A stretch of DNA of 64,000 nt from an uncultured Bradymonadales bacterium (GTDB lineage Bacteria > Myxococcota_A > Bradymonadia > JAFGEP01), in NCBI GenBank assembly GCA_964503485.1, contig CAZDBH010000004.1:56-64055 (forward strand), given 5' to 3'. Position numbers and translations under genes: made by a program. Of this stretch, positions 1-20,151 are shown one piece after another (positions within the stretch are counted from its first letter, which is position 1; the number at the start of each line of letters is the position of its first letter). Under the pieces are notes generated by a model. It was not told where the DNA came from. It made no database searches and saw only the letters and a program-made list of their open reading frames with translations.

Positions 1-969
1 TTCCTCTCCCGGCCACACACCAACCGACGGTTCAGCCATATCCGAGGCAAGCGAAGCGCGCCCCATGCCTTGGGTCCGAAACGCGAAACCCGCCTTGCCC
101 GTGGCGTCGATGGTCGCGATACCCGCTTTACCCTCACCGAAGAGCTGCGCTAGATGATCACTCGCCTCGAGTGCGGCGGCCTGTGCATCCGCGCCCACCT
201 TCATCGCATCGACCGCTCGACTGGACATCAAAGCGCGCAGAATGAACTCCCCGGTACCAGTGGCAACAGCGGCACCGATCCGATCTTCGGCCCAAAAACC
301 AGAGCCGGGTATTGGCGAGTCGCCGACTCTGCCGGGGGCCTTCATCCAGATGCCGCCGGTGGATACGGCACAGGCGATCTCGCCGGTCGAATCGAGCGCA
401 AGAGCTCCGACCGTATCCCCTTCGTCGTGCGTCCCGCCATATTTGGTAAGATCTTCCGCTCGCACGGACGCCTCTTTAGCCGTCTCTTTGCCCAGAAGCT
501 CTTTGTACCTTTGCATGCGTTCCGGGCTCGCCTCGCACAGTTCGACAGCGACGGAGCGATCGCGGGCGAATTCGACGGCGCCCGTTCCAACCAACAGACA
601 GTGGGGAGAACTGACTCGTACGGCCTCGGCCAACTCAATGGCGTTCCCAACGTTGGGAACCGCGCCTACAGCCCCGATCGAGGCGTCACCGGCCACCATC
701 ACCGCCGCGTCTGTCTCGACTGCCCCGGCGCGCGTCAGTCCTGATCCTATGCCTGCATTGAAGACACCGGACGATTCCATCGCGCGAACTGCCGTGCGGC
801 AGGCGTCGACCGCCGAACCACCCTCAACCAGGACTGCGGCGCCCGCTACGACCGCCTCTTCGAGTCCAGCGCGATACTGCGCCTCTTTCGAAGCGCTCAT
901 ATTCCGCATCGCCCCTGCACCGCCGTGTACCGCGATGGACCACTGTCGGATAGCCTGGTCGTCCCTCAC
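1..969 (-). CDS. iaaA: Isoaspartyl peptidase/L-asparaginase (Ntn-hydrolase), 3' end runs off the window
   Basis: Not in the ORF track (no stop inside the window). My translation of the minus strand from GTG 969 gives WSIAVHGGAG, VFNAGIGS, GDTVGALALD (nucleophile Thr), STGG, GRVGDSPIPGSG and ATGTGE, open through position 1. Confidence 0.9.
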   Translation of the reverse strand, partial: MRDDQAIRQWSIAVHGGAGAMRNMSASKEAQYRAGLEEAVVAGAAVLVEGGSAVDACRTAVRAMESSGVFNAGIGSGLTRAGAVETDAAVMVAGDASIGAVGAVPNVGNAIELAEAVRVSSPHCLLVGTGAVEFARDRSVAVELCEASPERMQRYKELLGKETAKEASVRAEDLTKYGGTHDEGDTVGALALDSTGEIACAVSTGGIWMKAPGRVGDSPIPGSGFWAEDRIGAAVATGTGEFILRALMSSRAVDAMKVGADAQAAALEASDHLAQLFGEGKAGIATIDATGKAGFAFRTQGMGRASLASDMAEPSVGVWPGEE

Positions 970-1147
970 TGAAAACCCTGCCGGTCGGTTGAATCGTCAG
1001 CACGAAGGAGGCCCACCTCCGAGCCACAGTTGATGTGGTGAATTTTCATGTTCGAGGTGCACCATCGACTAGAAGTTACGGCCCGCACATTGTAATAGAT
1101 ATTCGTACTCGACATGTACTGTCATCGACGCAACCGCTTCCGAGCCA

Positions 1148-1861
1148 ATGGACAAGCGCCTAATGAACGATTTCTTGAACCAAAATGTTGCTGTGACCGG
1201 AGGCTACGGCACACTGGGCACCGTCGTGATCAATATGCTGCTCGAGCGGGGAGCAATATGTCACGTGCCAGTTTTCGGTCGCGATGATCCCGAAGCACAT
1301 CCCCAGTTCAAGAATCCGAAGCTCATCTTTCAGCCGGGAATCGATCTCAGCACCGACAAGGGGGCTCGGAATTTCTTCAATGGCTGCCCGCCCCTATGGG
1401 CGTCCATTCACCTGGCTGGCGGTTTCGAGACATCGGCCCTCACAAAAACGCCCTACAGCTCCTTCCAGCGGATGTGGCGCATCAACGCAGCGACCTGTTT
1501 CCTCAGCTGCAAAGAAGCGGTGAAGCGCATCCGCGTGGGCGGCTTGGGCGGACGAATCGTCAACATCGCCTCGAAACCGGCCCTCAACCCGACCAGTCAT
1601 ATGGTTGCATACGGTGCCGCCAAAGCGGCCGTTGTCTCGATCACGCAAACACTGGCCAAGGAGCTGGCCTCAGAGGCGATTTGGGTGAACGCTGTCGCTC
1701 CCTCGGTACTCGACACCCCAGAAAACCGAGAAGCGATGCCCAAGGCAGACTTTTCGACATGGCCCAAGCTCGAGGACGTGGCAAGAGAGATCATTGAGCT
1801 GGCCTCACCCAACAACAGTACGACGAGTGGAAGCATCGTCACCGCCTACGGTGGAGCCTAG
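1148..1861 (+). CDS. Short-chain dehydrogenase/reductase (SDR)
   Basis: TGGYGTLG Rossmann motif, IVNIAS, YGAAK (YxxxK), VNAVAP; 237 aa. Confidence 0.92.
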   Translation: MDKRLMNDFLNQNVAVTGGYGTLGTVVINMLLERGAICHVPVFGRDDPEAHPQFKNPKLIFQPGIDLSTDKGARNFFNGCPPLWASIHLAGGFETSALTKTPYSSFQRMWRINAATCFLSCKEAVKRIRVGGLGGRIVNIASKPALNPTSHMVAYGAAKAAVVSITQTLAKELASEAIWVNAVAPSVLDTPENREAMPKADFSTWPKLEDVAREIIELASPNNSTTSGSIVTAYGGA

Positions 1862-1872
1862 AGCGAACGCCC

Positions 1873-2052
1873 CTAGAAGTTGTCCAGAATCGTGGAAATC
1901 ATCGATACGACGTCGGTGATGTCCAGAAGGTCGTCGTCGACTACATCGGCTACCACTTGCTCGATCTCGTTGAGTGTCATGCTGCCTAGGATGTGATTCA
2001 ACAGGCGCACCACGTCGGCTACGGTGAGCTCACAGTCTTCATCGATATCGCC
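1873..2052 (-). other. Dockerin-like module of protein A
   Basis: GD-x-D-x-D...D helix NHILG, linker, AD-x-x-D-D...D helix IL: two EF-hand-like loop/helix units at the extreme C-terminus. Confidence 0.8.
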
Positions 2053-5000
2053 GGTTCGTGCTCCGGTCGACGTGTAGATTCGTCTGCTGAAGGCTGCTTC
2101 GAGGGGCGTATTGAAGATCACTGCTTCGATTTCGTGTAGGGAGTCTCGGGGATCGACGGGCAAATCAACCGTGCCCACCAGCGCTGTCACACGAGTGGCC
2201 TCTTCACCACCGACCCTGAAACTGATGAAACTGTCGAATTCAGGCTCCCAGGATGATGCGACGTAATCCAAGCGGACATTCGACGCACACGTATTGTCGA
2301 CGATATCGAGTGCCAAGGTGGGATTGCCGATCTCGGCGATCGTCGCCTCCTCAAAGCCGACCGTGAATCGAACGGCGTGAAGGTCTTCCGGCGTCTGCAG
2401 CCCCTGGGCGATCAGACGCCACATGACGTAGATCGGCAGGGTTCCGTTCTGTATTTCAACTGTCAGGACGCTGTTTCCCGACGCGTTGGGCAACCCACAA
2501 CCCAACAATTCCAGGTTCGTACAACTACTATCACCCTGCCACGCGCAAACCTCGGCAGGGTTGCCGGAACTGTTGGTCAGATGGAATAGGCCCGTGTATC
2601 CGGCTGGGTCGATGACATAGTATTCCACCGGCCGTTGAACGAGTGCTTCGCCTCGCCGCCACGGAGTCCGGACACCCGAAACGCGCGCCATCGTCACTTC
2701 GTCCGCTGCTTCCTCGCACAGATTCGTACAGTAGTTGGTGTCCCCGGCAACCGAGTACCCAGTCGGCGCGCTCTGGACTGTCGCCCCGCCACCTTCTCTG
2801 AGCGCGGTGACGTCGAAACACAGCAGCCCCAAATCAGTGCCTGGCATTTCCGCGGCTGGCCGTCCTCCCTCGACAATGAGCTCCGACTGGAGTCCAGCCC
2901 CAACCAGTGTTTGTGAAACCCGGTAGGCGTCCGCCTCAGGTTCGGCATCCCACCACACCAGCGTCCCCGCCGATGTAAAGAAGTTCTGATCGTTGGGATC
3001 GAGCTGCCGCACGTTGATGTTTGTCGGCGAAGCCAACGTCAACGGTATACCGGTGATGTCATTGCCAGACGTGGTGCCGGATACCGAAGTCGGATTGCTC
3101 TCGACCCTGAGTACGTCGAGCTGCTGACGGAGCGCGCGCATACGGAGGATCGTCTCAATCTGATAGTCGTAGTCGAGATTGGGACCGAGCCGGTTATCGA
3201 GGTAGCAGGCTGCACCCCAATGATGGGCCACTACAACGAATTCCTCTTGCCCGCTCAATCGCCGCGAGACTCGATATGAGATTGAATCTGGGTCGAGCGG
3301 AATGCCCTTGAACTCAACGACCGGATCCCAACAGACCAGGATCTCGCCGGCTCTATTGTCGGTAGCGGTCAAGTTGCTCGGAGCGTCCAATTCCGCTGTC
3401 GGGTTCTCCGAAAGATCGAGCATCATCCAGGTAGGAAGCACCTCACCAAAATGGGTCGTCCTGATTTTGAGTTGTTGGCCGCCCACTGCATTGATTTCTA
3501 CGGCCCAACGGTTCTCTCGCACCAGTTCACCGCCCGTCTCTGGGCAGTCCCCAAAGATGCTGATGAGCGGATCGCCGCCCTCCAGCGTCTCGGTTCGGGG
3601 TGCGGGAGCCAACCGTTCATCGTTGAACTGATTCGGTTGATTGACCCAGGCGAAGACACGGCGTGGTTCCCCTGGCGAGCCCCCGACCGTGTAGTCGAAC
3701 CAAGCCGGTAGGCCAGGATCGTTCATTTGATTCAGCGCGTAGCCGCTTCCTTCGGAATAGGCCTCTGCTCGGATCGCCTCGCTGCAGAACACACCGTTGT
3801 CGACAGTAATCGGCGGTCTGGCGCATGTCGTCGATGCCCCTGAAACGCTGGGATCGCTGTACGTATTGGTCTCAAAATCGCGTTGAACGGCGACGAAGCA
3901 GTAGCGCGCACCCGGAAGGAAACCCGAATTGTCCAGGTCGATTGTGGTCACTCCCGAAGGATCCGCTACGTAGCGACCTACCTCGACGGCACACTCGTCG
4001 AGATCGCCCAAATCCCAGGTTGGGTTTGTACCCATGTTCGGGAACTGGAACGCCGAACGCCACAGGTTGCTTCGGTTCGCAGAGAGTGCGATTTGAGCTT
4101 CACAGCCGGCCTGCTGGTAGAGAATCACTTCATCCGCCTCGGTACCCCGTGGCCCGATCGGCGTCTCCACTTCGATACGCAACACCCCTGCGGTTGCGCC
4201 GCTGGCGCTGAGAATGGGGCGACTGAGCTCTTCCTCAGCTTGAACCGTCGCCGTCAGCGAACCTGGGCCCGCTGCGAGGGGATCGGTGAATCCGAGGTGA
4301 ATGTTGATTGTGCGGTCTCTTCGTGTGGGGACGGTGAACTCGGCACCTTCCCCTTCGTCGAAGATCCAGCTTCTGAACGGACGTTGAAAGTAGCCCCGGG
4401 GGCTGTATCCAAGCATGACTTCGGACGGAAAACCCACGGTGGTGATGTCCAGAGACAACGAAGCTGGATATCGAACAACGCTGGCCTCTCCAGCGGCTGT
4501 GTCGAAATCGAGGGCGTACAAGTCGCCAGAGAGCTGATCGATCAGGATTTCGCGACGCTCCACACCGGGCGGCATCGCAATGTATTCGGTGACGGTTCCC
4601 AGGTCGTTGAGCGCGACTTTCACCATTCGGGTGCCGCCCGAGTCGATGATGTACATCGCCTTGGTATCGGTCATCTGGTACTGGAGACGGTCGAGCCAAT
4701 CGTACCATGTTGCGCCCAAGACGTCGGGGACCGGATCCCAGATGACAATACCGGTAGGATTGATCAGACCCGCCGAGGCCGGCACCATAATGGGATCGCC
4801 CCTCCAGCTATCGCGTCTGATCATGTTATCGTCTGAACTCGTTATGTAGCGGCCGCCCGGGCCGACATACGTCCCCATCGGCCCAGCGAGGTTGTTCCGG
4901 GGGGACTGCCAGGTGTACCGACTATCGGGGCTGAGCGTGTACATGGCGTCGCTGGCGTAACCCGTGACATAGAAGTTGGCGCAGGCATTCATCCAGTCAA

Positions 5001-5688
5001 AGTAGTTGGTCCGATCGCAGGCTAAGTGGGTCGGTTCCCGAATCCCACCGGTACTATAATGTGACTGATACTCACCGTCTGGGTTGAATCGAAGGATACG
5101 ATGATTGTCTCGACTGGCGACGAAGAACATTTGCTCCCAGACGATATCGTCCATCGTGTACGAGCCACCCGGTCGCTGAAACCACCTGCCCCAGGAGATA
5201 TCCCACGGACCGTCCATCTGGCCGCTCACGTCTCCGTCGTACATCACCTCGGAGGTGCCGAGTGCAGCGTCGTACCTGACGAGTTGATTGGCACCGTAGT
5301 CGGCGAACCAGAAGTCGCCGTTTGGAGCGATCGCGAAGCCGGTCGGGTTCGTCATGCTGATCCCGCCAGCCATGACCTCGACGTTGCTTGGGGGTGCAGT
5401 GTAAGTGAAGATTTCGCCGCCCGGTCGGCCCGTCGCCGCGTACGCTTGGTTGTCGGCGAGATCGGTGAAAGTGCTTTCGTCCCAGCCGAAATAGAAGGGA
5501 AAAATCGAGTCTCGGTCCGGGTTCTGAAAAGTATCGGGTATGCCACGGAATCCGAAGTACCAGTACGGGCCGACGGGACCGTCATCGCTCCGCTCCTGGG
5601 CCTCGGCTGGAGAGCCGATCGCCAACGACGCGAGAGCAAGCGTGATGGTCATTGCGAGGAGTTTGGGGGCTGATTTGCGAGGCCTCAT
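1873..5688 (-). CDS. Large secreted protein A: NHL-like beta-propeller, Ig/Fn3 stalk, C-terminal dockerin-like module
   Basis: Signal peptide (AEA|Q). Propeller blades NPTGFAIAPNGDFWFADYGANQL, GPWDI, EPTHLA, GPMG, NPTGI. Fn3 APSNLTA..VCWDPV..YRV. Duplicated Ca-loop tail GDIDEDCELTVAD / ADVVDDDLLDITD. Confidence 0.85.
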   Translation of the reverse strand: MRPRKSAPKLLAMTITLALASLAIGSPAEAQERSDDGPVGPYWYFGFRGIPDTFQNPDRDSIFPFYFGWDESTFTDLADNQAYAATGRPGGEIFTYTAPPSNVEVMAGGISMTNPTGFAIAPNGDFWFADYGANQLVRYDAALGTSEVMYDGDVSGQMDGPWDISWGRWFQRPGGSYTMDDIVWEQMFFVASRDNHRILRFNPDGEYQSHYSTGGIREPTHLACDRTNYFDWMNACANFYVTGYASDAMYTLSPDSRYTWQSPRNNLAGPMGTYVGPGGRYITSSDDNMIRRDSWRGDPIMVPASAGLINPTGIVIWDPVPDVLGATWYDWLDRLQYQMTDTKAMYIIDSGGTRMVKVALNDLGTVTEYIAMPPGVERREILIDQLSGDLYALDFDTAAGEASVVRYPASLSLDITTVGFPSEVMLGYSPRGYFQRPFRSWIFDEGEGAEFTVPTRRDRTINIHLGFTDPLAAGPGSLTATVQAEEELSRPILSASGATAGVLRIEVETPIGPRGTEADEVILYQQAGCEAQIALSANRSNLWRSAFQFPNMGTNPTWDLGDLDECAVEVGRYVADPSGVTTIDLDNSGFLPGARYCFVAVQRDFETNTYSDPSVSGASTTCARPPITVDNGVFCSEAIRAEAYSEGSGYALNQMNDPGLPAWFDYTVGGSPGEPRRVFAWVNQPNQFNDERLAPAPRTETLEGGDPLISIFGDCPETGGELVRENRWAVEINAVGGQQLKIRTTHFGEVLPTWMMLDLSENPTAELDAPSNLTATDNRAGEILVCWDPVVEFKGIPLDPDSISYRVSRRLSGQEEFVVVAHHWGAACYLDNRLGPNLDYDYQIETILRMRALRQQLDVLRVESNPTSVSGTTSGNDITGIPLTLASPTNINVRQLDPNDQNFFTSAGTLVWWDAEPEADAYRVSQTLVGAGLQSELIVEGGRPAAEMPGTDLGLLCFDVTALREGGGATVQSAPTGYSVAGDTNYCTNLCEEAADEVTMARVSGVRTPWRRGEALVQRPVEYYVIDPAGYTGLFHLTNSSGNPAEVCAWQGDSSCTNLELLGCGLPNASGNSVLTVEIQNGTLPIYVMWRLIAQGLQTPEDLHAVRFTVGFEEATIAEIGNPTLALDIVDNTCASNVRLDYVASSWEPEFDSFISFRVGGEEATRVTALVGTVDLPVDPRDSLHEIEAVIFNTPLEAAFSRRIYTSTGARTGDIDEDCELTVADVVRLLNHILGSMTLNEIEQVVADVVDDDLLDITDVVSMISTILDNF

Positions 5689-5879
5689 TATTCAGTTGCC
5701 TCCGCTTCGGTCAGAATCGTCGTGACGAGTTCCACCAGGTCCAATATGTTTACCTCGCTGTCCTGGCTCATATCCGCTACCGGCAGAATGCCATCGACAA
5801 ATGAGACTCGCCCCAGGATGTGGTTGATCAAACGGACCCCATCGAGCACGTCGAGTGAACAGTCGAAGTTCACGTCGCC
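5688..5879 (-). other. Dockerin-like module of protein B
   Basis: GDVNFDCSLDVLDGVRLINHILG...ADMSQDSEVNILDLVELVTTIL. Confidence 0.82.
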
Positions 5880-8800
5880 CAGAATCCGGTCCGCCGGGAC
5901 AAGTAGAGTGCGGCTGAACTCGAGCTCGAGTGGGTTGTTGAACAGTTGCACAGTGATTTCGTGCAGGACTCGCGACGGATCAAGCGGGACCGGAAGGGTC
6001 CCCGAGAGCTCGGTAATGCTAGCCGCCTCGGCCCCATCAGAGAGAATTGAAGCGTACCCGTCGGGACCAGTTGCCCAGTTCGAGATCAAGTAGTCAAGGG
6101 TCAACTCAGTCGCACATTGTTGGCCGATAACGGTCATCGCGATTTCTGGATTGGTGCTGGCTGTGGCGACGCCGAACCCGAACTGAATCGGAAAGGTGAT
6201 TGCCTGTTGCTGGCGTGGACTCATTGTCTCGGGCGGCAGATAGCGCCAACGGAAAATCAGCTTGTCGACCACCTCAGCCAAAAACAGGTTCAAGAAGGCG
6301 TTTCCATACTCGTTGGATATGACGCATCCCTCAAATACGAGGTCGTTGCAGAGACTCGATCCGGTCCAGGCGCAGACCTCAGCGGGCTGACCGCTCTCGT
6401 TGGACGAAAACACCTGACCCAAACGGCCCTGAGTATCGAGTTCGTAGTATCTAACAGGGCCGTAGAACTGGACTGTCTCCACGGTCGGGCCGCTAAACCG
6501 ATTGAGCGGGTCGCCGGTGATCTGCACGGTTTCGGTGGCGTCTTCGCAGAGATTCACGCAGTAGTCCGTGTCGCCTGCCTCGCTCCACCCCGCGCTTGCT
6601 CCTTCGACGACATCACCTTCGGGGCTGGTCCATTGTGGCGTCACGTCGTAGCAATACGACCCCAGTGGCAGGTCGAGGGCTGGGAACTCGCCGGCTCTCG
6701 ATCCGCCGGCCAAAATGAAGCTCTCACTCTCGAGGCTGTTCGCTTCTGTTTGCACCACACGATAGGACGTCGCGACCGGGTCGCGGTCGAACCAGACCTG
6801 GGTACCGGCGGACGCGCCTCCGTCTATCAGTACGGGGAGCTGCACGTTCAGACCGGTGACGGCAGCAAGCGTGGGAGTCAGGTCGACCGAAATGCCGTTA
6901 GTCGAGCCAGTCACGGGGCCTGCCCGCTCACCGAGCAGCTCGATCTGCTGCGTCTGAGTGTCCAGCGCCTTGAGGTCGTATCTTGGCGTGATCCAATAGT
7001 CCCATGAACTGTCGGCGGCGAGACCGTAGTCGACGAAACAGGTGGTTCTCCAATTCTCCTGCAGAACCTCTGACGGACTGCCACCTACCGGTCCACGGGC
7101 AATTCGATAAGACAACCGCTCTTCGTCCATGGCTAAGCCGACGAAGTGGGACAGACCATCCCAGCATACAGTGACCCGGCCAGACTCGTCGGTTGAGGCG
7201 ACCAGGTTGCTGGGCGCGGCAATTTCGCTCGTGGGACCAACCGACAGGTCGAACATGCGCCATGTAGCGGGAAACTTCTCGAAGTGGACGATACGAATTC
7301 GAAGCCGGTCACCACCACGAGCTGTGAGGGATACAACTTGCTGGCCTTGGGCCAGTAGCTGGCTGCCCTCGACGGATGGGCAGCTATCGTAGACGCTGAT
7401 CAGAGCGTTGATGGCCTCTTCGTTGTCGACCCAGATGACGACTTGTCGTTCCTCGGAACCGCTGCCTTCTACCGAATACTCGAACCAACCCGGGGTTCCT
7501 CCTGCCGCCGTAGGAAGCAGTGGAAAACCACTGCTCTCGTCGTAGGACTCGGCTGGGAGCGCCTGATTGCAGAAGATCCCATTGCGGCCACCGTTGCCAG
7601 GGCGTTCACAGGCGTCGATGTAGTTCAAATCACTGAATTCACTAACAATACTGTCGTCATCGTCGATCGAAAGCGCGACCATGCACTGCTCGGTATCCGG
7701 AATCCATGGCACCTCGTCGAGCGTCACCGTGGTGGTTCCCGACGGGTCAGCGGGAAAGAAGCCCGCAAAGCTGAGACAATCGTCTGCCAGCGCTTGGGAA
7801 AAATGGGCGTCGCGAACCGGGTTAGGGAAGGGAAAGACTTCTCCGGGAATGCGTCCGCCGAATCCGTTAACGTTGTATACGGCGGCTGCCAGGTCGATGA
7901 GTTCCGTGCAATCGGTAAGAACGTAGAGGGCCAGCCTGTCGGGTTCAGCACCCAACGCGCCGACGGGGTGGACTACCTCTGCCTCGAGAACCCCTCCGAC
8001 GGGAGATGACAGTGCAAGCGTTGGCTTGGGCAACACTTGATCAAGGGTTTGGGTGAAACTGGCCGTCACCGGCGCGGCGCTCTCAGGGTCGCTCCAGCCG
8101 AGATAGAAGTAGGCTTCGTCGTCTCTCACAACAGGCACCGTGAAGGACGCCCCGGCATCGGTCGCGCCTATGATCCAACTGTCGTCGACCACCCGTCCAC
8201 CCAGCATGGCGCCCACGTAGAGGTCGGCGGCCGATCCCCCATCGAACTCGGCAAAATACCGCTCTCGCTCGACAATCAAGGATGCCTCACCCGATCCGGT
8301 GTCTGCCGATGTGAGGAACAAATCACGGGTGTTTAGATCGAGCAGCATACCGGTTGGTGAATCGAGGCCATCGCGAAAGACGGTGGGAGTCGAGCCGGCC
8401 AAGGCTGACCGAAAGATGGTGTCTGCTCCTTGGTCAACCACGAACAACCCGGCACTTGGTCTTGCCCGCCAAGAGATGTAGTCGTGTACGTGCGGATTGA
8501 GCGGATCCGGACTCGGATCCATGAGGCTGATCGAGACCGGGTCGACGAAGTGATTCGTCCCATCTACGATAACCTCCGGTCCTACGCCACCGAAGCCGAA
8601 GGGGCCGAAATTGGCTGCTTGGATGACCTTTCGGCTGTCACGGCTGAGGATAAGGTGGGGTGTGGTTGATCCCAGGTTGATCGCTACGTCGATTGGACCG
8701 TCGAATAAGGGTGAACTGATAAAACTAAATGTTCTGCAACTCGCGCATCCGGAGTACCCGATTATCCTGTCTGCCGCGTAGTCGGCGACTGCTACGTAGC

Positions 8801-9488
8801 CGAAGACCTCCCAGATCTGGGTCGAATCGTTGAAGCGCCATGCTTCTCCGATTCCTGTGGGCTCGATTATTCCGGATCCGGACTTGTACTCGGCATAGCC
8901 CCCGCTGTTTGTGAGCTCGATCAAACGGCCGTTGTCTCTGCTCGATATAATCGCTCGGATTGGCGGTTCGCCTGGCGCCAGCGCCTCGGGGTATACGATG
9001 CCGTTTCCTGCGCGACCGTGCCAAAAGAAGCCGACGTCCCATGGCCCTGATAACTGCGGTCCGTCGTAAATCGTCCGAAAAACGCCGCTGACCGGATCAA
9101 AACCAACGACTCGATTTGCACCGTAGTCGGCTATCCAGATTTCGCCGGTGTCAGGGTGTTGGCTCATCCCGGTCGGTTGAACCAATTCGGCACTGGAGAG
9201 CAGTTCCGTTTCGAGCGCTGGAACCAGATACTGATAGAGGTTTCCGTCTGGAGAGCCACTGGTGGTTACGACGTCTCCGTCGCGCAATTCGGGAATCGGC
9301 ACGCCTTGGTCTTGCCACCGAATCGCCGCCCGCGTTTGCGATGGCAGGGCACCTTCGGTATCGCCAAAATAGGTCAACGGCTCGATAGGCCCGTCGGGGA
9401 TGACGACCTGCGCCGAGGATGACAGAGGCACCACTAGCAGGGCGAGGCAGAGAACATGTCGGAGTGCAGCTGTTGATCGTCGTTTCAT
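5688..9488 (-). CDS. Large secreted protein B, paralog of A (beta-propeller/Fn3/dockerin-like)
   Basis: Signal peptide (SSA|Q), same domain order and conserved motifs as A (PTG..IWIADYGANRVV, DPSGTTT, NGIFCNQA, APSNL, AGDTDYCVNLCEDA). Its TAA overlaps the ATG of A (TAATG at 5690-5686). Confidence 0.85.
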   Translation of the reverse strand: MKRRSTAALRHVLCLALLVVPLSSSAQVVIPDGPIEPLTYFGDTEGALPSQTRAAIRWQDQGVPIPELRDGDVVTTSGSPDGNLYQYLVPALETELLSSAELVQPTGMSQHPDTGEIWIADYGANRVVGFDPVSGVFRTIYDGPQLSGPWDVGFFWHGRAGNGIVYPEALAPGEPPIRAIISSRDNGRLIELTNSGGYAEYKSGSGIIEPTGIGEAWRFNDSTQIWEVFGYVAVADYAADRIIGYSGCASCRTFSFISSPLFDGPIDVAINLGSTTPHLILSRDSRKVIQAANFGPFGFGGVGPEVIVDGTNHFVDPVSISLMDPSPDPLNPHVHDYISWRARPSAGLFVVDQGADTIFRSALAGSTPTVFRDGLDSPTGMLLDLNTRDLFLTSADTGSGEASLIVERERYFAEFDGGSAADLYVGAMLGGRVVDDSWIIGATDAGASFTVPVVRDDEAYFYLGWSDPESAAPVTASFTQTLDQVLPKPTLALSSPVGGVLEAEVVHPVGALGAEPDRLALYVLTDCTELIDLAAAVYNVNGFGGRIPGEVFPFPNPVRDAHFSQALADDCLSFAGFFPADPSGTTTVTLDEVPWIPDTEQCMVALSIDDDDSIVSEFSDLNYIDACERPGNGGRNGIFCNQALPAESYDESSGFPLLPTAAGGTPGWFEYSVEGSGSEERQVVIWVDNEEAINALISVYDSCPSVEGSQLLAQGQQVVSLTARGGDRLRIRIVHFEKFPATWRMFDLSVGPTSEIAAPSNLVASTDESGRVTVCWDGLSHFVGLAMDEERLSYRIARGPVGGSPSEVLQENWRTTCFVDYGLAADSSWDYWITPRYDLKALDTQTQQIELLGERAGPVTGSTNGISVDLTPTLAAVTGLNVQLPVLIDGGASAGTQVWFDRDPVATSYRVVQTEANSLESESFILAGGSRAGEFPALDLPLGSYCYDVTPQWTSPEGDVVEGASAGWSEAGDTDYCVNLCEDATETVQITGDPLNRFSGPTVETVQFYGPVRYYELDTQGRLGQVFSSNESGQPAEVCAWTGSSLCNDLVFEGCVISNEYGNAFLNLFLAEVVDKLIFRWRYLPPETMSPRQQQAITFPIQFGFGVATASTNPEIAMTVIGQQCATELTLDYLISNWATGPDGYASILSDGAEAASITELSGTLPVPLDPSRVLHEITVQLFNNPLELEFSRTLLVPADRILGDVNFDCSLDVLDGVRLINHILGRVSFVDGILPVADMSQDSEVNILDLVELVTTILTEAEATE

Positions 9489-9491
9489 AGC

Positions 9492-9677
9492 TTATCCCGA
9501 CAGGTCGTTGAGAATGTGGGAGATCATCGCAACCATATCGAGGATGTCGACCTCGGTGTCCTCGTTGAAGTCACCTAGTGGAAGCAGTGCTTCGGCGATG
9601 AGTTCGAGTCCGAGGATGTGGTTGTTGATGATGACGACATCGAGCACGTTGATTCGGCAGTCGTGATTTACGTCACC
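9492..9677 (-). other. Dockerin-like module of protein C
   Basis: GDVNHDCRINVLDVVIINNHILG...GDFNEDTEVDILDMVAMISHIL. Confidence 0.85.
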
Positions 9678-12600
9678 GATTGATTCGCCGGTCGCAATGT
9701 AAGCTAGGCGCTCGTACACCTTCTGGAACGGGTCGGCGTAGAGCGCCACCTCGATGGTGTGCAGCGCCACTAGCGGGTTGACTCGCACCTCGACTCGCGT
9801 TGCCAGCTGGTCGTGCACAGAAGCGATCTGCCCATCAGCCAGGATAGCGACGAACGACTCCAGTCCTGGCTCCCAACCCGACACCCAGTAGTCGACCGTG
9901 ATACCCGAAGCGCATGCGCTGTCGAGGTCAACGCCAACGTTGGGAACAGCAGTGCCGCCGGTCGGTATCAACCACGAACTCGATTGAGGAGCGTGGCCAA
10001 TGCCGAATTCGATTCGGGCCAGAATTTCATCTAGCGCCTCGAGTTCAGTCAGGCTTCGCGGATAGAGCTCCTCGAGCAGTTCGACGTGAACATAGATGTT
10101 GTCGGTCTCGGAGCCGGTCTCGACATCGGTTCGCAGTATTCCGAACGTGTCAGATACGCCTTCACCCCGGTAGGTCAGATTATTGCAGTCAGGGCCTGAA
10201 TAAATGGTCGCCCTGAGTGGGACGCCATCGAAACTCGCCACATAAAAGGGCCCTGAGTAGGGTTGATCCTGCCATTCTGAGTTCCGGTGCTGACCAAAGT
10301 CGATGACGTAGTTTCTGGTGAATCCATTGAACCAGCTGAGCCCAGGAAAGACCTCGCCACTGTATTCATCAGGATACCCGGGGACCTGGACCAACGTCGT
10401 CGCCTCCTCGCACACATCGATACAGTAGTCGGTATCGCCAGCTTCGCTGTATCCGGCCACCGGGCTCTGGGTTACCTCACCGCTTGGCTCAGTGCGTTCG
10501 TGATAGAGGTCGATGCAAATGTTGCCGATAGCCTCGATCCTGAGATCGACAGCATGGTTCTGGTCTCTCAGGAGAAACTCCGTCTGCTCCCCCGTTCCGA
10601 TGTCGGTCTGAACCACCCTGTGCTGTGTGGGACCGTAGGCTTCGTCCCATGCCACTTTGATGCCCGCACTGACCGCCGAGTTGATGCCTCGCGGGCTCGC
10701 CGGATCGAGCGGCGCCCGATTGTTGACGTCAGGATGACTGACATACAGGCCGGTGGGACGATCGAGCGTAGGCTCCAGACCGGTCAGGTCGACCGCAGTA
10801 GTTTGCCCTGTCGCGGGGGCACTATTGGCCGATCGAATGATCGCGCTTGCATCTGCTGAACCGACCACCGGGGTTCTGCCGTAGAGTGGATAGAGTGCTG
10901 AGATTCTGTAGTCGTAGGCCACCTCAGGCGCGAGTGTGCGATCGACGAAACAGTGTCCTTGCCAGCTGTCGACCAGAATCGTGTCCATCATCTCACCTTC
11001 GGGTCCTCTCAAGACTTGGTAGGTGACATAGTCCTCGCTGACTTGGTTGAGACCAACTCGCCGCACTGGATCCCAGCAGACGGTGATCTGACCGTCCTCA
11101 GCCACTCCCAAGCTGCCTCCCGAAGCCTCGACGTTGCCGGGGACGGGCTGATCTGCAGTTTGAAGATCGGAGAGATGCCACATCAACGGAGCGCGGGCGA
11201 AGTGGGTCAATCGGAAGTAGACGGTTGTCCCGCCAGGCACCTCCAACATCACTTGTTCGTGACCTGAGGCTATCGGCAACTCTGCTCCACCGGGGCAGGT
11301 TGTGAACGCCGCAAGTAAAGCCGCACCGTTCGCCATTTGCCCTTCGACCTCGGCGACCAGCGTGTGCAGTTCGCTGTCCTCTCCCGGAACCGTGTACGAG
11401 TACCAAGTGGGTGATCCAGTCGCAGACGAGGGCATCTCGACGATGTTGCCCAGGCTCGAAGCGGTCACGGGCAACGCTTGGCTGCAGAAAAGCCCGTTGG
11501 ATGATCCCGCTGACGCGAGCGCACAGGAGTCGAGAAAATCCAGGTTACTGGGCCGACTGAAGGCGTTCCTCGATGGGGCTGTGGCCATGGATACAAAGCA
11601 GTACTTGGTGCCCGGCAGGAACCCTACATCGTCCAAGACAACCTCGGTCGTACCAGATGGGTCGGTGGCGAGTTCCCTGAACGGAGTGAAGCAGTCGAAG
11701 AGGTCGGGATATCTAACCTGAAAGCTGCCAGCTGTCGGGTCGGGTGACGGCCTGGTCCACGGGCTCACAGACCTTCCCCAGTAAAACGAATGATCGCAGC
11801 CCGTGTATTGGTAGAGGTTCAGCTCTTCGGCCCCCGTTGAGTGTTCGATTGAGAGCACTACACCCGGGCCACTCGGATTGCCGGTGGCTGACAAGACGGG
11901 GTGGGTCAATTCCGGTACCAGACCCTGATCGATGGTCACGCCGAAGGGCGTTGCCACACTCGAAGCGGGTCGATCGAGATACAGTGCAAACGTCTCCTCA
12001 CGTCGGGCAGAGAAGGTCAGCTCGTGCCCATTTGAGCTGTCCGCCCACATCCAGTTCAAAAATGGGTTATCGAGCTTGCTCTGGCGGCCAACGCCGATCA
12101 ACACGTCCGTTGGCGCGCCCGCTGCAGAGACCGTCATCTCCACTTCATCGGGAAGAATCGAAAACCGTGAGGTGCCGGCTCCCACGTCAGCAGTGAGGAC
12201 CAGAAGGTCATTCTCCACGCCACCAAACACAAGTGCGGTCGCCGGCGCCAGCAGACTCTGATCGGCCACTTCGGTCCCGTTTCCGTCGGAGAGCTCGATG
12301 ATCGTTCCATCTTCGTTCAGAGCGAACGCATGACCTGGCGGCCGAGCGATTGGGTCGCGGCTCGTCTGGGTATAGGCCACGTCAACCGGACGATCGAGAC
12401 CGTCCTCTGAGTCGTAGACTGGAATAAAGTAACTCGAGGGCATGAAGCCGCTCTCCCGAAAGAGGGTGCTGATCGTGTCGGAACCGTAACTTGCCACCAG
12501 CACGAATCCGTCGTCAGGAACGGCAATACCAAGTGGTTCATCAAACCCGGTGAACGTGTTTTCGCACCAGCTCCCGCTATTGCAGATTCCCCACTCGTCA

Positions 12601-13310
12601 AAACTCCGATAAGCCCCGTACATGCGTACGGTGTTGGTCGAATTGCTCGACACGACGACGTTCGTGCTAAAGGAGTCGAGTACGCCGACGCCCGTCGGGT
12701 CCGGTACACTGCGCTCATTACCGACGACGCCATCGACTACCAAGAAGACCTTGTCGTTGTCGCGGCTCGATACCGCACAGAGAACTTCTGCTTCCGCGGT
12801 CGGGGGGCCACCAAAACCGCCACCGTTGCCGCTGACCATAATGCAGTGAAGGTCCCAAATTCCTTGTAGCCTGGGGTCATCAACCACGGTCGCGAAGTCC
12901 CCTGTGGCGGGGTCCCAAGAAATCACCTGGTTTAGACCATAGTCGGCGATCCAATAGCCTCCCTCTGGGTGGGCCGTAATGCCCGTTGGTCGGACGAGCT
13001 CAGCCCCGTCGGTGATCAAGTTCTGTTCGGCCATCACGCGAACCAGACTGACTTCGCCGCCTGGGTTGCCCGGTGATGTAAATGTGTCGTTACCCTGCCT
13101 GTCCGTGAACGAGTCGAGGTCCCAGAACCAGTCGAAGGGAACGAAGTTGCCGAGGTTCCAGCGACCGACCTTGTCGCCGATCCACCGATAAGGGCCAATA
13201 CCGTCCCGCGGGTCTATCGTGATCTGCGCGGTTGAGAGTACCGGCGACAGCAACAGAGCAGCGGCGACCAACGTAGCGAGAAATCGAGGTGGCGAAGAAG
13301 TCGCGCTCAC
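9492..13310 (-). CDS. Large secreted protein C, paralog of A/B (beta-propeller/Fn3/dockerin-like)
   Basis: Track ORF 9492..13412. The more likely start is GTG 13310, which has GGAGG upstream and precedes a signal peptide ending STA|Q. Same motifs as A/B; 3-nt gap to B. Confidence 0.85.
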   Translation of the reverse strand: MSATSSPPRFLATLVAAALLLSPVLSTAQITIDPRDGIGPYRWIGDKVGRWNLGNFVPFDWFWDLDSFTDRQGNDTFTSPGNPGGEVSLVRVMAEQNLITDGAELVRPTGITAHPEGGYWIADYGLNQVISWDPATGDFATVVDDPRLQGIWDLHCIMVSGNGGGFGGPPTAEAEVLCAVSSRDNDKVFLVVDGVVGNERSVPDPTGVGVLDSFSTNVVVSSNSTNTVRMYGAYRSFDEWGICNSGSWCENTFTGFDEPLGIAVPDDGFVLVASYGSDTISTLFRESGFMPSSYFIPVYDSEDGLDRPVDVAYTQTSRDPIARPPGHAFALNEDGTIIELSDGNGTEVADQSLLAPATALVFGGVENDLLVLTADVGAGTSRFSILPDEVEMTVSAAGAPTDVLIGVGRQSKLDNPFLNWMWADSSNGHELTFSARREETFALYLDRPASSVATPFGVTIDQGLVPELTHPVLSATGNPSGPGVVLSIEHSTGAEELNLYQYTGCDHSFYWGRSVSPWTRPSPDPTAGSFQVRYPDLFDCFTPFRELATDPSGTTEVVLDDVGFLPGTKYCFVSMATAPSRNAFSRPSNLDFLDSCALASAGSSNGLFCSQALPVTASSLGNIVEMPSSATGSPTWYSYTVPGEDSELHTLVAEVEGQMANGAALLAAFTTCPGGAELPIASGHEQVMLEVPGGTTVYFRLTHFARAPLMWHLSDLQTADQPVPGNVEASGGSLGVAEDGQITVCWDPVRRVGLNQVSEDYVTYQVLRGPEGEMMDTILVDSWQGHCFVDRTLAPEVAYDYRISALYPLYGRTPVVGSADASAIIRSANSAPATGQTTAVDLTGLEPTLDRPTGLYVSHPDVNNRAPLDPASPRGINSAVSAGIKVAWDEAYGPTQHRVVQTDIGTGEQTEFLLRDQNHAVDLRIEAIGNICIDLYHERTEPSGEVTQSPVAGYSEAGDTDYCIDVCEEATTLVQVPGYPDEYSGEVFPGLSWFNGFTRNYVIDFGQHRNSEWQDQPYSGPFYVASFDGVPLRATIYSGPDCNNLTYRGEGVSDTFGILRTDVETGSETDNIYVHVELLEELYPRSLTELEALDEILARIEFGIGHAPQSSSWLIPTGGTAVPNVGVDLDSACASGITVDYWVSGWEPGLESFVAILADGQIASVHDQLATRVEVRVNPLVALHTIEVALYADPFQKVYERLAYIATGESIGDVNHDCRINVLDVVIINNHILGLELIAEALLPLGDFNEDTEVDILDMVAMISHILNDLSG

Positions 13311-13311
13311 G

Positions 13312-15594
13312 TCACTCTCCCTCCATGCAGGTATCGACGCATCCCATGTCGGCGTTGGGCAGGCAGACTGCCCCGTCGGTACATCCCTCGTAGACTTCCC
13401 CGCAGCCTCCACTCACTGGAACGTGCACCGAGAGGTCTCTCAGAGTGTTCCATCCGGAATCCCAATGTTCGATTGTGCTCTCGTAGTTTCGGCCGCAACT
13501 CTGCACCTGGGCGGTCGCTGTGCATTGAGCGGAGCACTCTTCCCCGAACCCGCAGGGGTTAGCCGTGCAAACAGAGGGCAGCGTGAACCGACCGTGAAGC
13601 CCCATGGATCGAGCTCCAGCGGCAGCGAGATCGACGTTCGATTCACCGTCGACGTCGCTGACATCCGAGGGTAGGAAAGAGACGTCTTCGTCGATCGTCA
13701 CAATCTCGCCGCATGCTGTCCCTTCGAGTTCGCGATGGGTAGCCACACGACCGGAAATGCACTGCTCGTAGTGGACCCTGCAACTGCCGCTCGTCTCACC
13801 CACACTGGGGCAAAGAGAAGCCGAGTAGAGGCCGAGTTCGTCTATTTCGAGCGTGTAATAGTTGCGGCTGCTGTCCGAGCCCAGCGCAGCCGCGCTATGC
13901 GCTGACCACTGAATCAAATCGTAGCGATAGACGGGGAAGACCGCTCCTACTGCGTCGAAGGATAGCTCCGCAAAACTGGCCAGTGTTGCTTCGACTGGTA
14001 GCTCCAGCGTGGCCGGGACTGCCAACTCGAGATTGGCAGGCAACAGCTCAATAGCGGTGGGAGCGAATAGTGGTTGAAATTCGGATGGACCTCGGTGGGG
14101 GCTTTCAGCAGGTGTCATTGTCGCGAGGCATATCTCAGTTACGTCGGGCAGCGACCCGTTTGGAAAGGTGACCGAGGCGCCTGACGACGCAACCAGACTG
14201 CCCCCTTCGGGTCCGATCTGGGTGCATTCGGGCGGAAGTGAAAACGGAACGACAACCCGCGAATCGGAGTCGGGTCGGATATGAACGGTGTGCCGTCTCG
14301 TACCGCGTGTGGGATGGCTGACGACGAGGTAGTGCGTACCCACGTAGAGCCGGACAATCATCGTGTTTCCACCGGGCAGATTATGAACGGAGTCGTTCGG
14401 GCCCAAGAGTTGGACTGAGTAGGCTTGCAGTTCTTCTTCTGGTGCCTCTTCGGGATCGGCGTAGGGTTCGGGAGATATTGAGAGCGAGAGCCGACCTTCT
14501 TCGACACCGTCGTAGACTGTCACATCGACGGAGTCAGTCAGACGGTTTCCGTCCCATTCGTACTCGGCGGTGATCGTTGCTTGACCGGGAGCGAACGCTT
14601 GGATCATTCCCGTGCGAGAGACCGTCACACTGTCTTCGTTGTCGCTCGTCAGGGTGACAGTCGCGGAGGCCTCCTTGACCCCTTGATTCATGATCGTCGT
14701 CCACGCAGGCTCTGCCGTCGACCCGTAGAAGAATGCAACGTTGAGGAATTCGATCTGACCGGCTCCGTCCCGGGAGTCCGACCCCAGTACGATGTCTGTC
14801 AGCGGCGCGACCCCGATAGCCCGAGGCTCCACCAAAGCGATCGAATCCGTGCAAGGCTCCGAATAGAGCCGGCCCTCGGCTGTGTTTAGGAACGTTTTTA
14901 CCGAGAAGGTGCTCTCCTCGCCGGGTACAATGCCCGCAACCGGGCGGGAAGAGATGTCCGGAAAGGCCAGTTCGGCGACTAACTCGCCGTTGCGTTCGAT
15001 TCGATAGCCTGAGATGTCGTCCGTGTAGCCGGGCAGAATGTCCTCTGGAGCTTGCCGCTGCCAAGCAAAATTCACGCCCTGGGGAAGACGCGGCTCCGCT
15101 GAGCAACCTGCCAGTGCGGCCGGAAGAACAAGTGCGGCCGCGTCCACCTCGGCGAGATCTGCAACGTCGTTCTCTTCGTTGCTGTCCCCATCGTATGCGT
15201 CGACTAGCTCCTCCGTCGTGTCGGAAGCATCCTCGTCGGGTGGAAGGTCGTGGTTCTGATCGCTGTCCTCTGTGGCATCGCTCGAATCGGCTGGCTCTGA
15301 GTCTTCGTCGTACTGGACATCGCTGCTATCGCTGGACAGGTCCTCCGCGTCGTTGCCTGCGTCGGTGTCGCTCCACACGTCCTCGCCCGGCGTGACGCAA
15401 ACACCCTGTTCGGTGTCGCAAACCTGCTCCGGTGTGCAGGGCAACGTGCAGGGCGTTGTTGTTGGTTCGGGCGTTGTGGGATCTTCCCCACACGCCGAGA
15501 GCGCCAGTGCAAGCACCAGGAGTACGGGGCCCAACGTTCCAGTCCATCGGATTTTCAGTGGCCATTCGATGGTATTTGGATCTGTTAAAACCAT
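13312..15594 (-). CDS. Lipoprotein with Cys-rich N-module, acidic linker, Fn3, Big_2-like Ig, ZU5-like domain and Cys-rich C-terminus
   Basis: Lipobox LSA|C; CTLPC..C..C; D/E-rich linker; Fn3 VNFAW..ISGYRIERNG; Ig DSVTVSRTGMIQAFAPGQATITAEY; ZU5-like IGPEGGSL..ASVTFPNGSL. Confidence 0.78.
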   Translation of the reverse strand: MVLTDPNTIEWPLKIRWTGTLGPVLLVLALALSACGEDPTTPEPTTTPCTLPCTPEQVCDTEQGVCVTPGEDVWSDTDAGNDAEDLSSDSSDVQYDEDSEPADSSDATEDSDQNHDLPPDEDASDTTEELVDAYDGDSNEENDVADLAEVDAAALVLPAALAGCSAEPRLPQGVNFAWQRQAPEDILPGYTDDISGYRIERNGELVAELAFPDISSRPVAGIVPGEESTFSVKTFLNTAEGRLYSEPCTDSIALVEPRAIGVAPLTDIVLGSDSRDGAGQIEFLNVAFFYGSTAEPAWTTIMNQGVKEASATVTLTSDNEDSVTVSRTGMIQAFAPGQATITAEYEWDGNRLTDSVDVTVYDGVEEGRLSLSISPEPYADPEEAPEEELQAYSVQLLGPNDSVHNLPGGNTMIVRLYVGTHYLVVSHPTRGTRRHTVHIRPDSDSRVVVPFSLPPECTQIGPEGGSLVASSGASVTFPNGSLPDVTEICLATMTPAESPHRGPSEFQPLFAPTAIELLPANLELAVPATLELPVEATLASFAELSFDAVGAVFPVYRYDLIQWSAHSAAALGSDSSRNYYTLEIDELGLYSASLCPSVGETSGSCRVHYEQCISGRVATHRELEGTACGEIVTIDEDVSFLPSDVSDVDGESNVDLAAAGARSMGLHGRFTLPSVCTANPCGFGEECSAQCTATAQVQSCGRNYESTIEHWDSGWNTLRDLSVHVPVSGGCGEVYEGCTDGAVCLPNADMGCVDTCMEGE

Positions 15595-15609
15595 TCGGTC
15601 GTCGGCTCC

Positions 15610-18690: not shown

Positions 18691-20151
18691 ATGTTCGTCT
18701 CACGTCAGGAACTGTTAGAGCGAGGGACACTTGTGAGAATCATCCCGCTGTCCAAATGGGCCGCTGCTATCTTGTTTGCGGGTTTGCTGCTTCCTGGTTG
18801 CCCAAAGGACCCGCCCGCCACTAGCAACCAGACCTGTCCAATCACCTGCCCTCTCGAATGGTGCAACCTGAATACGGGCCTGTGCGAACCGCCTGAGGAC
18901 GATGTGGTCGATGCAGACGAACCGGATGTGGTCGAGGAGGTCGCTGAACCGGATCCCGACACCACTCAATTGGGCGACGGCACGGTACAAAACGACATCG
19001 AAGAGGAACCAGACGTCGAAGACGAGCCCGACATAGAAGATGAGCCCGAGCTAGAGGTCGTTGAGGACATCGGCGAAAACGAAACCGATGGCGGCGAGGA
19101 CGATACCGGTGAACAGCAAGACATCCTCGAAGAACCAGAGGTCGAAGACGAACCCGACATAGATGATGAACCGGATATCCCAGAGACTGCGTGTCCCGAC
19201 CACCTCGAGCCGAGTGGAGACGACAACGTGATTCAGATCCACGAATCACTGATAATCGGCGATGTCGAGAGTTGTGTTGAGACCTATGATCCGCTGAATA
19301 CCAACGGATGCACCTGCGACGGCGCCGATTGCTGCCAGTGTGGTGGGGCCCAATCTCTGGCTTTGTGTGGTTTCGACGACGTGGACACCTATCGATTCGA
19401 CTTTCTGCGGGGCGACGTGGTGTCGATTCGAGTCATTCCGGACATACGAACAGACTGCTTCTCATATTTCGCGGTTGTCGATCGTTTGAAAGACGAAATC
19501 GGCACTATCGATACCGACTTTCAGCGGCGAGCCGGTTGCGACGGCAGTCGTGCGCTGGGCGTCAACTTGGTGGAACTCAATCCTGCAGAGCCATCCACAG
19601 GGGATCCTGGCACGATAGCGCGTTACCGACTTCGTGTGCGGTCGGCACAGGACGACCCGATTCCCTACCATATTCACGTGCAAGTCGAGCCCGTCAGTCG
19701 AGGCTGCGAGGGAGACCCCTGGGATGATGACATCAGCGTCCACACCGTCGGACGCGGTAGTGAAAAGCGCTGCAGTACCGACGATTGCACAGCCGACCTC
19801 ACCACAATCGGCGATCCTGTCGGTGTAGCGGGCAATCTGTGCCCGTGGGACCGGGTCGACTATGTGCGGCACGAAATCACGACGGAGTTCCCCAACACCC
19901 GCCGGGTAAAAATCCTATTCGACGGTACGGTCTCTCATCTGACCGGAAACCTGTGTCGGCTCGATGCGCTGGGTGATCCGACCGACTGTTGGGAAATCTG
20001 TCCGAGTTGCGACGACACAACCGTTAGCCCGTCCGGTATCGAGAGGGTCTTCGATGGCGCCGAAGGGCTCTGGCCAGCGGTTTATCAGCTCGAGGTCTCC
20101 TCAGACACAGCTCGGGCGAACCCATTCACCGTGCTGTTCCTAGACGAATAA
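18691..20151 (+). CDS. Lipoprotein with Cys-rich modules, acidic linker and PPC-like C-terminal domains
   Basis: Lipobox LPG|C; CPITC..C..C; E/D-rich linker; motifs LCGFDDVDTYRF and LCPWDRVDYVR, typical of myxobacterial PPC-like (pre-peptidase C-terminal) modules. Confidence 0.72.
   Translation: MFVSRQELLERGTLVRIIPLSKWAAAILFAGLLLPGCPKDPPATSNQTCPITCPLEWCNLNTGLCEPPEDDVVDADEPDVVEEVAEPDPDTTQLGDGTVQNDIEEEPDVEDEPDIEDEPELEVVEDIGENETDGGEDDTGEQQDILEEPEVEDEPDIDDEPDIPETACPDHLEPSGDDNVIQIHESLIIGDVESCVETYDPLNTNGCTCDGADCCQCGGAQSLALCGFDDVDTYRFDFLRGDVVSIRVIPDIRTDCFSYFAVVDRLKDEIGTIDTDFQRRAGCDGSRALGVNLVELNPAEPSTGDPGTIARYRLRVRSAQDDPIPYHIHVQVEPVSRGCEGDPWDDDISVHTVGRGSEKRCSTDDCTADLTTIGDPVGVAGNLCPWDRVDYVRHEITTEFPNTRRVKILFDGTVSHLTGNLCRLDALGDPTDCWEICPSCDDTTVSPSGIERVFDGAEGLWPAVYQLEVSSDTARANPFTVLFLDE

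Follow-up and report, generated by a model that had tools for sequence, protein, structure and literature searches.

Three propeller-headed dockerin proteins in one operon with a predicted three-cohesin scaffold: a putative non-cellulosomal surface complex of an uncultured Bradymonadales bacterium

The locus described here raises the question of what purpose is served by three neighboring paralogous genes, A, B and C, whose products carry divergent beta-propeller heads on a common stalk of fibronectin type III (Fn3) and immunoglobulin-like (Ig) domains. They occupy positions 1873 to 13310 of a stretch of 64,000 nucleotides (the window) from contig CAZDBH010000004.1 of an uncultured Bradymonadales bacterium (assembly GCA_964503485.1), and coordinates given without a contig or locus name refer to this window. 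A first-pass annotation, made from the sequence alone, had described them as triplicated paralogs with divergent heads, a description that is well supported; what it means for function is a matter of inference. That annotation omits the type I dockerins at the C-termini of all three proteins and the three-cohesin scaffold, protein E, predicted from the same operon. With a probability of roughly 0.6, we consider A, B and C to be cargo subunits of a small non-cellulosomal cohesin-dockerin surface complex with binding heads, docked on the three cohesins of E.

All three genes lie on the minus strand and are tightly packed. Genes A (1873-5688, 1271 aa) and B (5688-9488, 1266 aa) are intact open reading frames (ORFs), and gene C (9492-13310) encodes about 1272 aa from a GTG at 13310, which is the most plausible start, one base past the stop of the upstream gene D; the longest ORF of C reaches 13412. 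The ATG of A shares one base with the stop of B (TAATG), while B starts three bases past the stop of C, and such tight or overlapping packing fits a single operon. The three proteins are collinear and could be aligned end to end by BLASTP over about 1300 columns (E-values from 0 to 1e-115), with identities of 31% for A-B, 28% for A-C and 29% for B-C, a similarity well outside what chance would give. The alignment contains the anchor motifs G.P.G, PTG...W.ADYG.N, DPSG.T, NG.FC..A, P.W..Y.V.G, VCWD and AGDT.YC...CE.A, so that the common order and the motifs listed in the first-pass annotation were all recovered. Its statement that no DNA-level repeat is obvious also held, as megablast gave 0 matches among A, B and C and blastn only scraps of 42 and 68 nt.

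The same operon order, E-D-C-B-A, was found in four loci: the window, a second copy in the same genome on contig C111 (locus L010) and two ENA metagenome contigs. The second copy (C111 337-17107, minus strand) is 34-48% identical to the window copy, gene by gene, and consists of E2 (14162-17107), D2 (11897-14158), C2 (7975-11979), B2 (4203-8054) and A2 (337-4203). The 12 A, B and C proteins of these loci fall into three orthogroups with 100% support each, A and B being sister groups (89/87) and a distant singleton lying outside. This indicates that the triplication predates all known loci, and the duplication is old, as had been supposed. We rejected recent duplication or gene conversion, since there is no DNA repeat, paralogs from the same locus are no closer to each other than others (23.2% head identity against 22.5% overall) and the orthogroups are fully supported. 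Within the orthogroups C2 pairs with the copy on locus L009 (97/96), B2 likewise (90/90) and A with the copy on locus L008 (95/91), pairings that hint at two ancient operon types. The distant singleton, P0017 (1245 aa; L091 10001-13738, ENA ERZ24794666 NODE_5481), has the same architecture including the dockerin and does not belong to a triplet.

The family appears to be restricted to very few places. A hidden Markov model (HMM) scan of 1.84 billion representative proteins returned about 15 family members including fragments, and further matches covered NHL or Fn3 segments only. Neither the A/B/C family nor the cohesin subtype of E was present in the other 112 Bradymonadia species genomes searched, and degenerate-pattern scans based on the family alignment found no relatives in a named genome collection or in JGI metagenomes; all relatives came from protein collections and from the source genome. 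By housekeeping genes found in the window the source organism belongs to Bradymonadia; its cystathionine beta-synthase-like protein shares 58-68% identity with those of Lujinxingia and of Bradymonadaceae metagenome-assembled genomes.

Each of the three proteins consists of a signal peptide, an NHL-type propeller, seven beta-sandwich domains (bs1 to bs7) and a C-terminal type I dockerin. The signal peptides all end in Ala-Gln, and export of A, B and C is therefore expected; about 12 invariant cysteines in the stalk are likewise what is expected of an exported protein. In A the signal peptide comprises residues 1-30 (ending AEAQ), the propeller residues 31-421 (4426-5598), the seven beta-sandwich domains residues 422-1204 (2077-4425) and the dockerin residues 1205-1271 (1876-2076). 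In C the propeller is encoded at 12111-13226, the stalk at 9702-12110 and the dockerin at 9495-9701. The boundaries in B were placed from the secondary structure of an AlphaFold2 model of residues 27-1195, built on the 12-sequence family alignment (mean predicted local distance difference test, pLDDT, 79.3; predicted template modeling score, pTM, 0.70). Here the signal peptide (residues 1-26) and the NHL propeller (27-420; 8229-9410) are followed by the stalk (5904-8228), composed of bs1 (421-512), bs2 (513-630, with a low-confidence loop), bs3 (631-752), an Fn3 domain (753-856), an Fn3-like domain (857-968), bs6 (969-1090) and bs7 (1091-1195), and by the dockerin (1196-1266; 5691-5903).

The propeller head and Fn3/Ig stalk proposed earlier agree well with this model and with Foldseek searches. 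The head of B matched the designed propeller Pizza6 in the PDB with a template modeling (TM) score of 0.81-0.82 and the NHL domain of TRIM71 with 0.70, which supports a six-bladed fold, the predicted number of blades being taken from superposition on the six-bladed Pizza6. The family profile gave the same picture against the PDB, with E-values of 7.9e-11 for Pizza6, 1.2e-8 for the extracellular sensor domain of Mycobacterium tuberculosis PknD (1rwi) and 1e-6 to 1e-7 for the TRIM2 and TRIM71 NHL domains (4.5e-7 for TRIM2). Pfam NHL (PF01436) matches 9/12 family members, and the window proteins score 16-19.5 bits against a gathering score of 20; NHL blade motifs are kept in two blades and most blades have no repeat motif. 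NCBIfam yielded nothing for A, B and C apart from a sub-threshold ScyD/ScyE propeller match for A. As for the stalk, Pfam fn3 (PF00041) matches two of the 12 members (best E-value 6.3e-8) and positions 765-845 of the family profile align with FN3con (E = 1.4e-3). Seven-strand sandwiches are present in the B model at residues 753-856 and 857-968, the second being Fn3-like by the model alone, and the remainder of the model resembles multi-Fn3/Ig ectodomains and multi-Fn3 receptors. A Foldseek comparison of the full B model with viral structures was uninformative, giving only generic multi-Fn3 tail-fiber matches.

A type I dockerin contains two duplicated 12-residue calcium loops, with Asp or Asn at positions 1, 3, 5, 9 and 12, and a helix after each. 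Such duplicated loop/helix segments can be seen in the alignment of the 12 tails, for example DVNFDCSLDVLD...HILG and DMSQDSEVNILD...TIL in B, with two deviations, the first being Val at position 3 of the second loop in 3/4 A-type tails. Pfam Dockerin_1 (PF00404) matches all 12 family members at E <= 1 (best 1.5e-8); B and C of the window score 25.0 and 31.8 bits against a cut-off of 22.9, and A matches weakly. The family profile also matches type I dockerins of the PDB with E-values of 7e-4 to 2e-3. The second deviation lies in the first calcium loop, where position 6 is Cys instead of the canonical Gly in all 12 dockerins and also in the dockerins of two distant relatives, P0017 and P0018. 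A further invariant Cys (C1125 in B) is found in the domain preceding the dockerin, and a disulfide could conceivably lock this X-module to the dockerin.

The putative counterpart of the dockerins is encoded in the same operon. Gene E (15610-18486, minus strand) specifies a secreted protein of 958 aa that starts with three repeats in tandem, each about 118 residues long, R1 (18025-18381), R2 (17665-18024) and R3 (17323-17664), followed by an unrecognized beta region and a helical C-terminal region. E has zero matches in Pfam and NCBIfam, and a profile of nine E-type modules found no cohesin in the PDB or Pfam at E <= 10. The cohesin fold, a nine-stranded flattened beta-sandwich (jelly-roll), was judged from structure prediction. 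An AlphaFold2 model of one E module, made from the nine aligned modules, reached a pLDDT of 92.8, and its best Foldseek matches in the PDB were the cohesins 2xdh (Archaeoglobus fulgidus), 5n5p (Ruminococcus flavefaciens) and 2jh2 (Clostridium perfringens), with E-values of 2e-5 to 1e-4 and TM scores of 0.6-0.72. At E <= 1e-3, 17 of 20 PDB matches, the top nine included, were cohesins of types I, II or III or of non-cellulosomal kind (E from 2.4e-5, TM 0.49-0.72). The three modules share 25-35% identity among themselves, and R2 shares 53-64% with its orthologs from the other loci.

To these two lists of modules the whole 8.67-Mb genome can be compared. An HMM of the 12 dockerins produced exactly six strong matches, in A, B, C, A2, B2 and C2, and an HMM of the cohesin modules found three in E, three in E2 and five weaker ones in single-module proteins elsewhere. 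With six dockerins and six scaffold cohesins, each operon copy pairs three predicted sockets with three plugs.

The five single-cohesin proteins speak for another explanation, namely that the dockerins pair with other cohesin lipoproteins or make another calcium-dependent contact, the 3:3 match being coincidental and E having a separate role. These proteins are of the same cohesin subtype, E has no recognizable anchor of its own and the dockerins differ rather little from group to group. However, the order of E, D and the three dockerin genes is unchanged across 4/4 loci, the numbers of cohesins and dockerins match in both genomic operon copies, and the modules of E are conserved with their positional orthologs and divergent from neighboring modules, for which reasons we consider this explanation unlikely. 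The proteins in question are encoded at C281 2-814 (+), C281 778-1677 (+), C328 7502-8455 (-), C705 1682-2260 (-) and C18 36317-37084 (+). Those on C281, C328 and C705 are lipoprotein-like with an acidic linker, and the one on C18 has the cohesin-like module directly past the signal peptide and Cys-rich repeats after the module. Segments with a weaker likeness to dockerins occur in a protein of 1841 aa (C37 24739-30261, minus strand) and in a protein on C270 (6261-8690, minus strand). The source organism thus seems to possess a wider private cohesin-dockerin network.

How different are the three heads, and does their difference tell us what they do? We compared mean percent identities of the domains among the 12 sequences (three orthogroups, four loci). 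The propeller head is 22.5% identical between groups and 34% within a group, that is among orthologs; bs1, the first stalk domain, gives 20.7% and 35%, the other six stalk domains 29-35% and 40-48%, and the dockerin 38% and 51%. Between-group indel positions make up 21% of the head and 6-12% of all seven stalk domains. The heads therefore diverge more than the stalk and are not conserved like it, as the first-pass annotation had it, with the exception of bs1, which is as divergent as the head. The data did not bear out an excess of divergence specific to the paralogs: both the ratio of between-group to within-group identity (0.66 in the head, 0.60-0.80 in stalk domains) and the proportion of positions fixed in a group-specific way (4.0% against 1.3-7.7%) fall inside the stalk range, and the highest share, 7.7%, belongs to the X-module adjoining the dockerin. 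Fast evolution is a general property of the head. The suggestion that the three heads recognize different ligands is compatible with this divergence, and is not proved by it, because orthologous heads are also the least conserved part of the proteins. Regarding composition, all 12 heads are strongly acidic, with 34-63 Asp and Glu residues (about 50-60 in most) against about 20 Lys and Arg, and several, in particular A-type heads, are rich in Trp (up to 13-15) and Tyr (up to 24).

The first-pass annotation had left the choice between adhesin- or lectin-like heads and propeller enzymes of the SMP-30/Vgb kind. We checked A, B and C against Pfam and NCBIfam and found no glycoside hydrolase, peptidase, esterase or other catalytic family, which agrees with the absence of such motifs noted before. 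An enzymatic reading would have the heads as six-bladed propeller enzymes (SMP-30/gluconolactonase/PON-like, PAL-like or Vgb-like) and the assembly as a true multi-enzyme complex, comparable to a cellulosome but with a different substrate, for example prey cell wall or signal molecules. The fold of the head does belong to the same superfamily as the propeller enzymes, each orthogroup keeps an invariant set of Asp, Trp and Tyr of its own, and the distant singleton P0017 adjoins trypsin-like, amidase and M23-peptidase genes. The direct matches to enzymes are marginal, SGL in 1/12 members (E = 0.048), regucalcin (E = 0.26) and PAL (3fvz, E = 0.14), whereas the family profile matches ligand-binding NHL propellers better by many orders of magnitude (8e-11 against 0.26 for regucalcin). 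Known propeller-enzyme sites consist of Glu, Asn, Asn and Asp for calcium in the SMP-30/PON type and of three His plus Tyr and Arg in PAL. In the alignment no set of His, Glu or Asn is common to all 12 heads: only three columns are invariant in 12/12 (P37, D121 and G148 in B numbering), there is no invariant His in A heads or C heads and one in B heads, and there is no invariant Glu in A heads or B heads. The lack of an invariant His in A and C excludes a PAL-type three-His zinc site, and a shared site of this type or of the SMP-30/PON calcium type is excluded, at the level of sequence, by the missing invariant residues. The near-invariant polar residues of the head include the NHL structural motifs WIADYG.N and SRDN. 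On profile scores and residue conservation we rejected the PAL-like, SGL-like and Vgb-like readings, and an enzymatic function of the heads is improbable. No match to an enzyme family with intact catalytic residues was found in these searches, the nearest relatives being ligand-binding NHL propellers. The binder option is therefore favored over the enzyme option as the better-supported one, on the basis of absent catalytic residues and of these relatives.

Still less probable is an environmental sensor, in which the NHL heads would bind soluble signals, as has been proposed for the mycobacterial kinase PknD, and relay them through D, F (a neighboring lipoprotein gene) or another partner, since in spite of the PknD sensor domain being among the best sequence matches (1rwi) and of Ser/Thr kinase genes nearby (26718-28613, and adjoining the operon in L008), A to F contain no transmembrane signaling or kinase domain, and long multi-domain stalks with multivalent display are more typical of adhesins.

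We thus return to a surface complex with binding heads. The dockerins of A, B and C would plug, in a calcium-dependent manner, into the three cohesins of E, and the complex would be tethered to the envelope through lipoprotein D and/or F. Three different propeller heads would in this way be displayed at the ends of long multi-domain stalks, and would act as ligand-binding modules (adhesin or receptor) rather than as enzymes, probably with non-identical targets. These targets could plausibly be surfaces of prey or partner cells, because cultured Bradymonadia are predators (PMC7460792, PMC11509652), or surface structures of a substrate. A, B and C are presumably non-redundant subunits, since all three orthogroups are kept at every known locus.

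Several points weigh against this complex. The E modules are called cohesins from a predicted fold, and HMM searches for cohesins in Pfam and the PDB came out negative. The five further single-cohesin proteins of the genome could be the true dockerin partners. The putative ligand-binding role is deduced from absent catalytic residues and from relatives, and the fast evolution of the head among orthologs makes relaxed constraint an alternative to ligand diversification. Finally, with 38% identity between groups, the three kinds of dockerin resemble each other fairly closely, so that one-to-one pairing is not evident. This last point bears most on a stricter version, an ordered hetero-complex in which each cohesin of E takes one type of dockerin and X-module, each complex carries one A, one B and one C head, and prey or partner recognition is combinatorial. 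One-to-one specificity of the sockets would be favored by the low identity of R1-R3 to each other (25-35%) compared with R2 and its orthologs (53-64%) and by the 7.7% of group-specific positions in the X-module, and we put the ordered complex forward only tentatively, as a possibility.

The proposed complex can be compared with several known systems. Non-cellulosomal cohesin and dockerin modules occur in many bacteria and archaea, with roles largely unknown. Cases are given in the survey by Peer et al. 2009, as cited in PMC9012536; scaffoldin-like multi-cohesin proteins were described in anaerobic methanotrophic (ANME) archaea (PMC9012536) and cohesin/dockerin "adhesin" clusters in syntrophic sulfate reducers (PMC10553843). 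The present locus resembles such assemblies in having modules without signs of cellulose degradation, cargo without glycoside hydrolases and a presumed role at the surface or in cell contact, function being unproven in those systems too. It differs from them in that one conserved operon combines a predicted three-cohesin scaffold with exactly three ancient paralogous dockerin proteins, in that the putative cohesins are too divergent for the Pfam model and in that the family is present in a handful of public loci. With the clostridial cellulosome (CipA-type) it shares a type I-like dockerin (PF00404), tandem scaffold modules of cohesin fold and a presumed plug-and-socket assembly. However, our searches found neither catalytic modules in A, B and C (Pfam, NCBIfam) nor a recognizable carbohydrate-binding module (CBM), S-layer homology (SLH) domain or sortase anchor on E; the only recognizable anchors at the locus are lipoproteins, D and F, and the host is of Gram-negative type. 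Without catalytic cargo and with none of these recognizable CBM, SLH or sortase elements the system is not a cellulosome. The cohesins of E also differ from those of a cellulosome in their low mutual identity (25-35%), which suggests distinct rather than interchangeable sockets.

As regards the heads, ligand-binding NHL propellers (PknD 1rwi, TRIM2/TRIM71/Brat) are the best matches in sequence and fold, and they share the lack of catalytic residues. The head examined here is larger, about 390 aa compared with about 260. It also has an extension at the N-terminus and inserts specific to each group, and is carried by a seven-domain stalk that ends in a dockerin instead of by a kinase or TRIM scaffold. 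The propeller enzymes (SMP-30/regucalcin/gluconolactonase, PON1/DFPase and PAL 3fvz) have the six-bladed fold and weak sequence matches in common with it, but their metal-ligand and catalytic sets are not conserved, and the head is much more similar to non-enzymatic NHL domains than to these enzymes. In the literature search we found no paper linking dockerins with Bradymonadia, myxobacteria or NHL repeats. What is distinctive is the self-contained, conserved operon with one predicted three-cohesin scaffold and three anciently diverged cargo paralogs, present in few loci.

To our knowledge, cohesin-dockerin pairs outside cellulose degraders are widely predicted and have hardly been tested for function. 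The present locus offers such a case in unusually clean form, with a putative three-socket scaffold, three plug paralogs and candidate lipoprotein anchors kept as a unit over long evolution. The question of who binds whom comes down to nine combinations, and the three defined heads can be screened for ligands. Should the heads bind to the surfaces of prey, little-studied bacterial predators would turn out to have a recognition apparatus of a new type; if the sockets are specific, they would provide three orthogonal and compact cohesin-dockerin pairs for protein engineering; and if the ordered complex is real, it would be a natural "designer" mini-scaffold without enzymatic cargo.

The remaining genes of the locus fit around this core. 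Gene D (13312-15594, minus strand) encodes a lipoprotein of 760 aa whose lipobox is LSAC|G; it has an acidic linker and a Big_2 domain and also gives a weak ZU5-like match. Its orthologs hold the same position in 4/4 loci, D being 34% identical to D2, and D is a candidate membrane anchor of the complex. Gene F (18691-20151, plus strand) is divergently transcribed and encodes a lipoprotein of 486 aa in which a four-Cys module and a Cys-rich C-terminal domain occur together with a long acidic linker. F is retained next to the operon on both C111 and L008, at 38% and 45% identity respectively, and is a possible sixth component of the complex. In E, residues from about 389 to 958 (15610-17322), 570 residues in all, have no family match and end in a Cys-rich tail; this C-terminal region contains the strongly conserved motifs SLYEH, QLLHELYR, ANPV.DI.W and HPWY.ENAFRW.YL, and it may have an anchoring or effector function in the complex. 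On the other side of the operon, a short-chain dehydrogenase gene (adh_short; 1148-1861, plus strand) is convergent with A and also adjoins A3 on L008 (17662-18360), an adjacency that is the sole flanking synteny between the loci.

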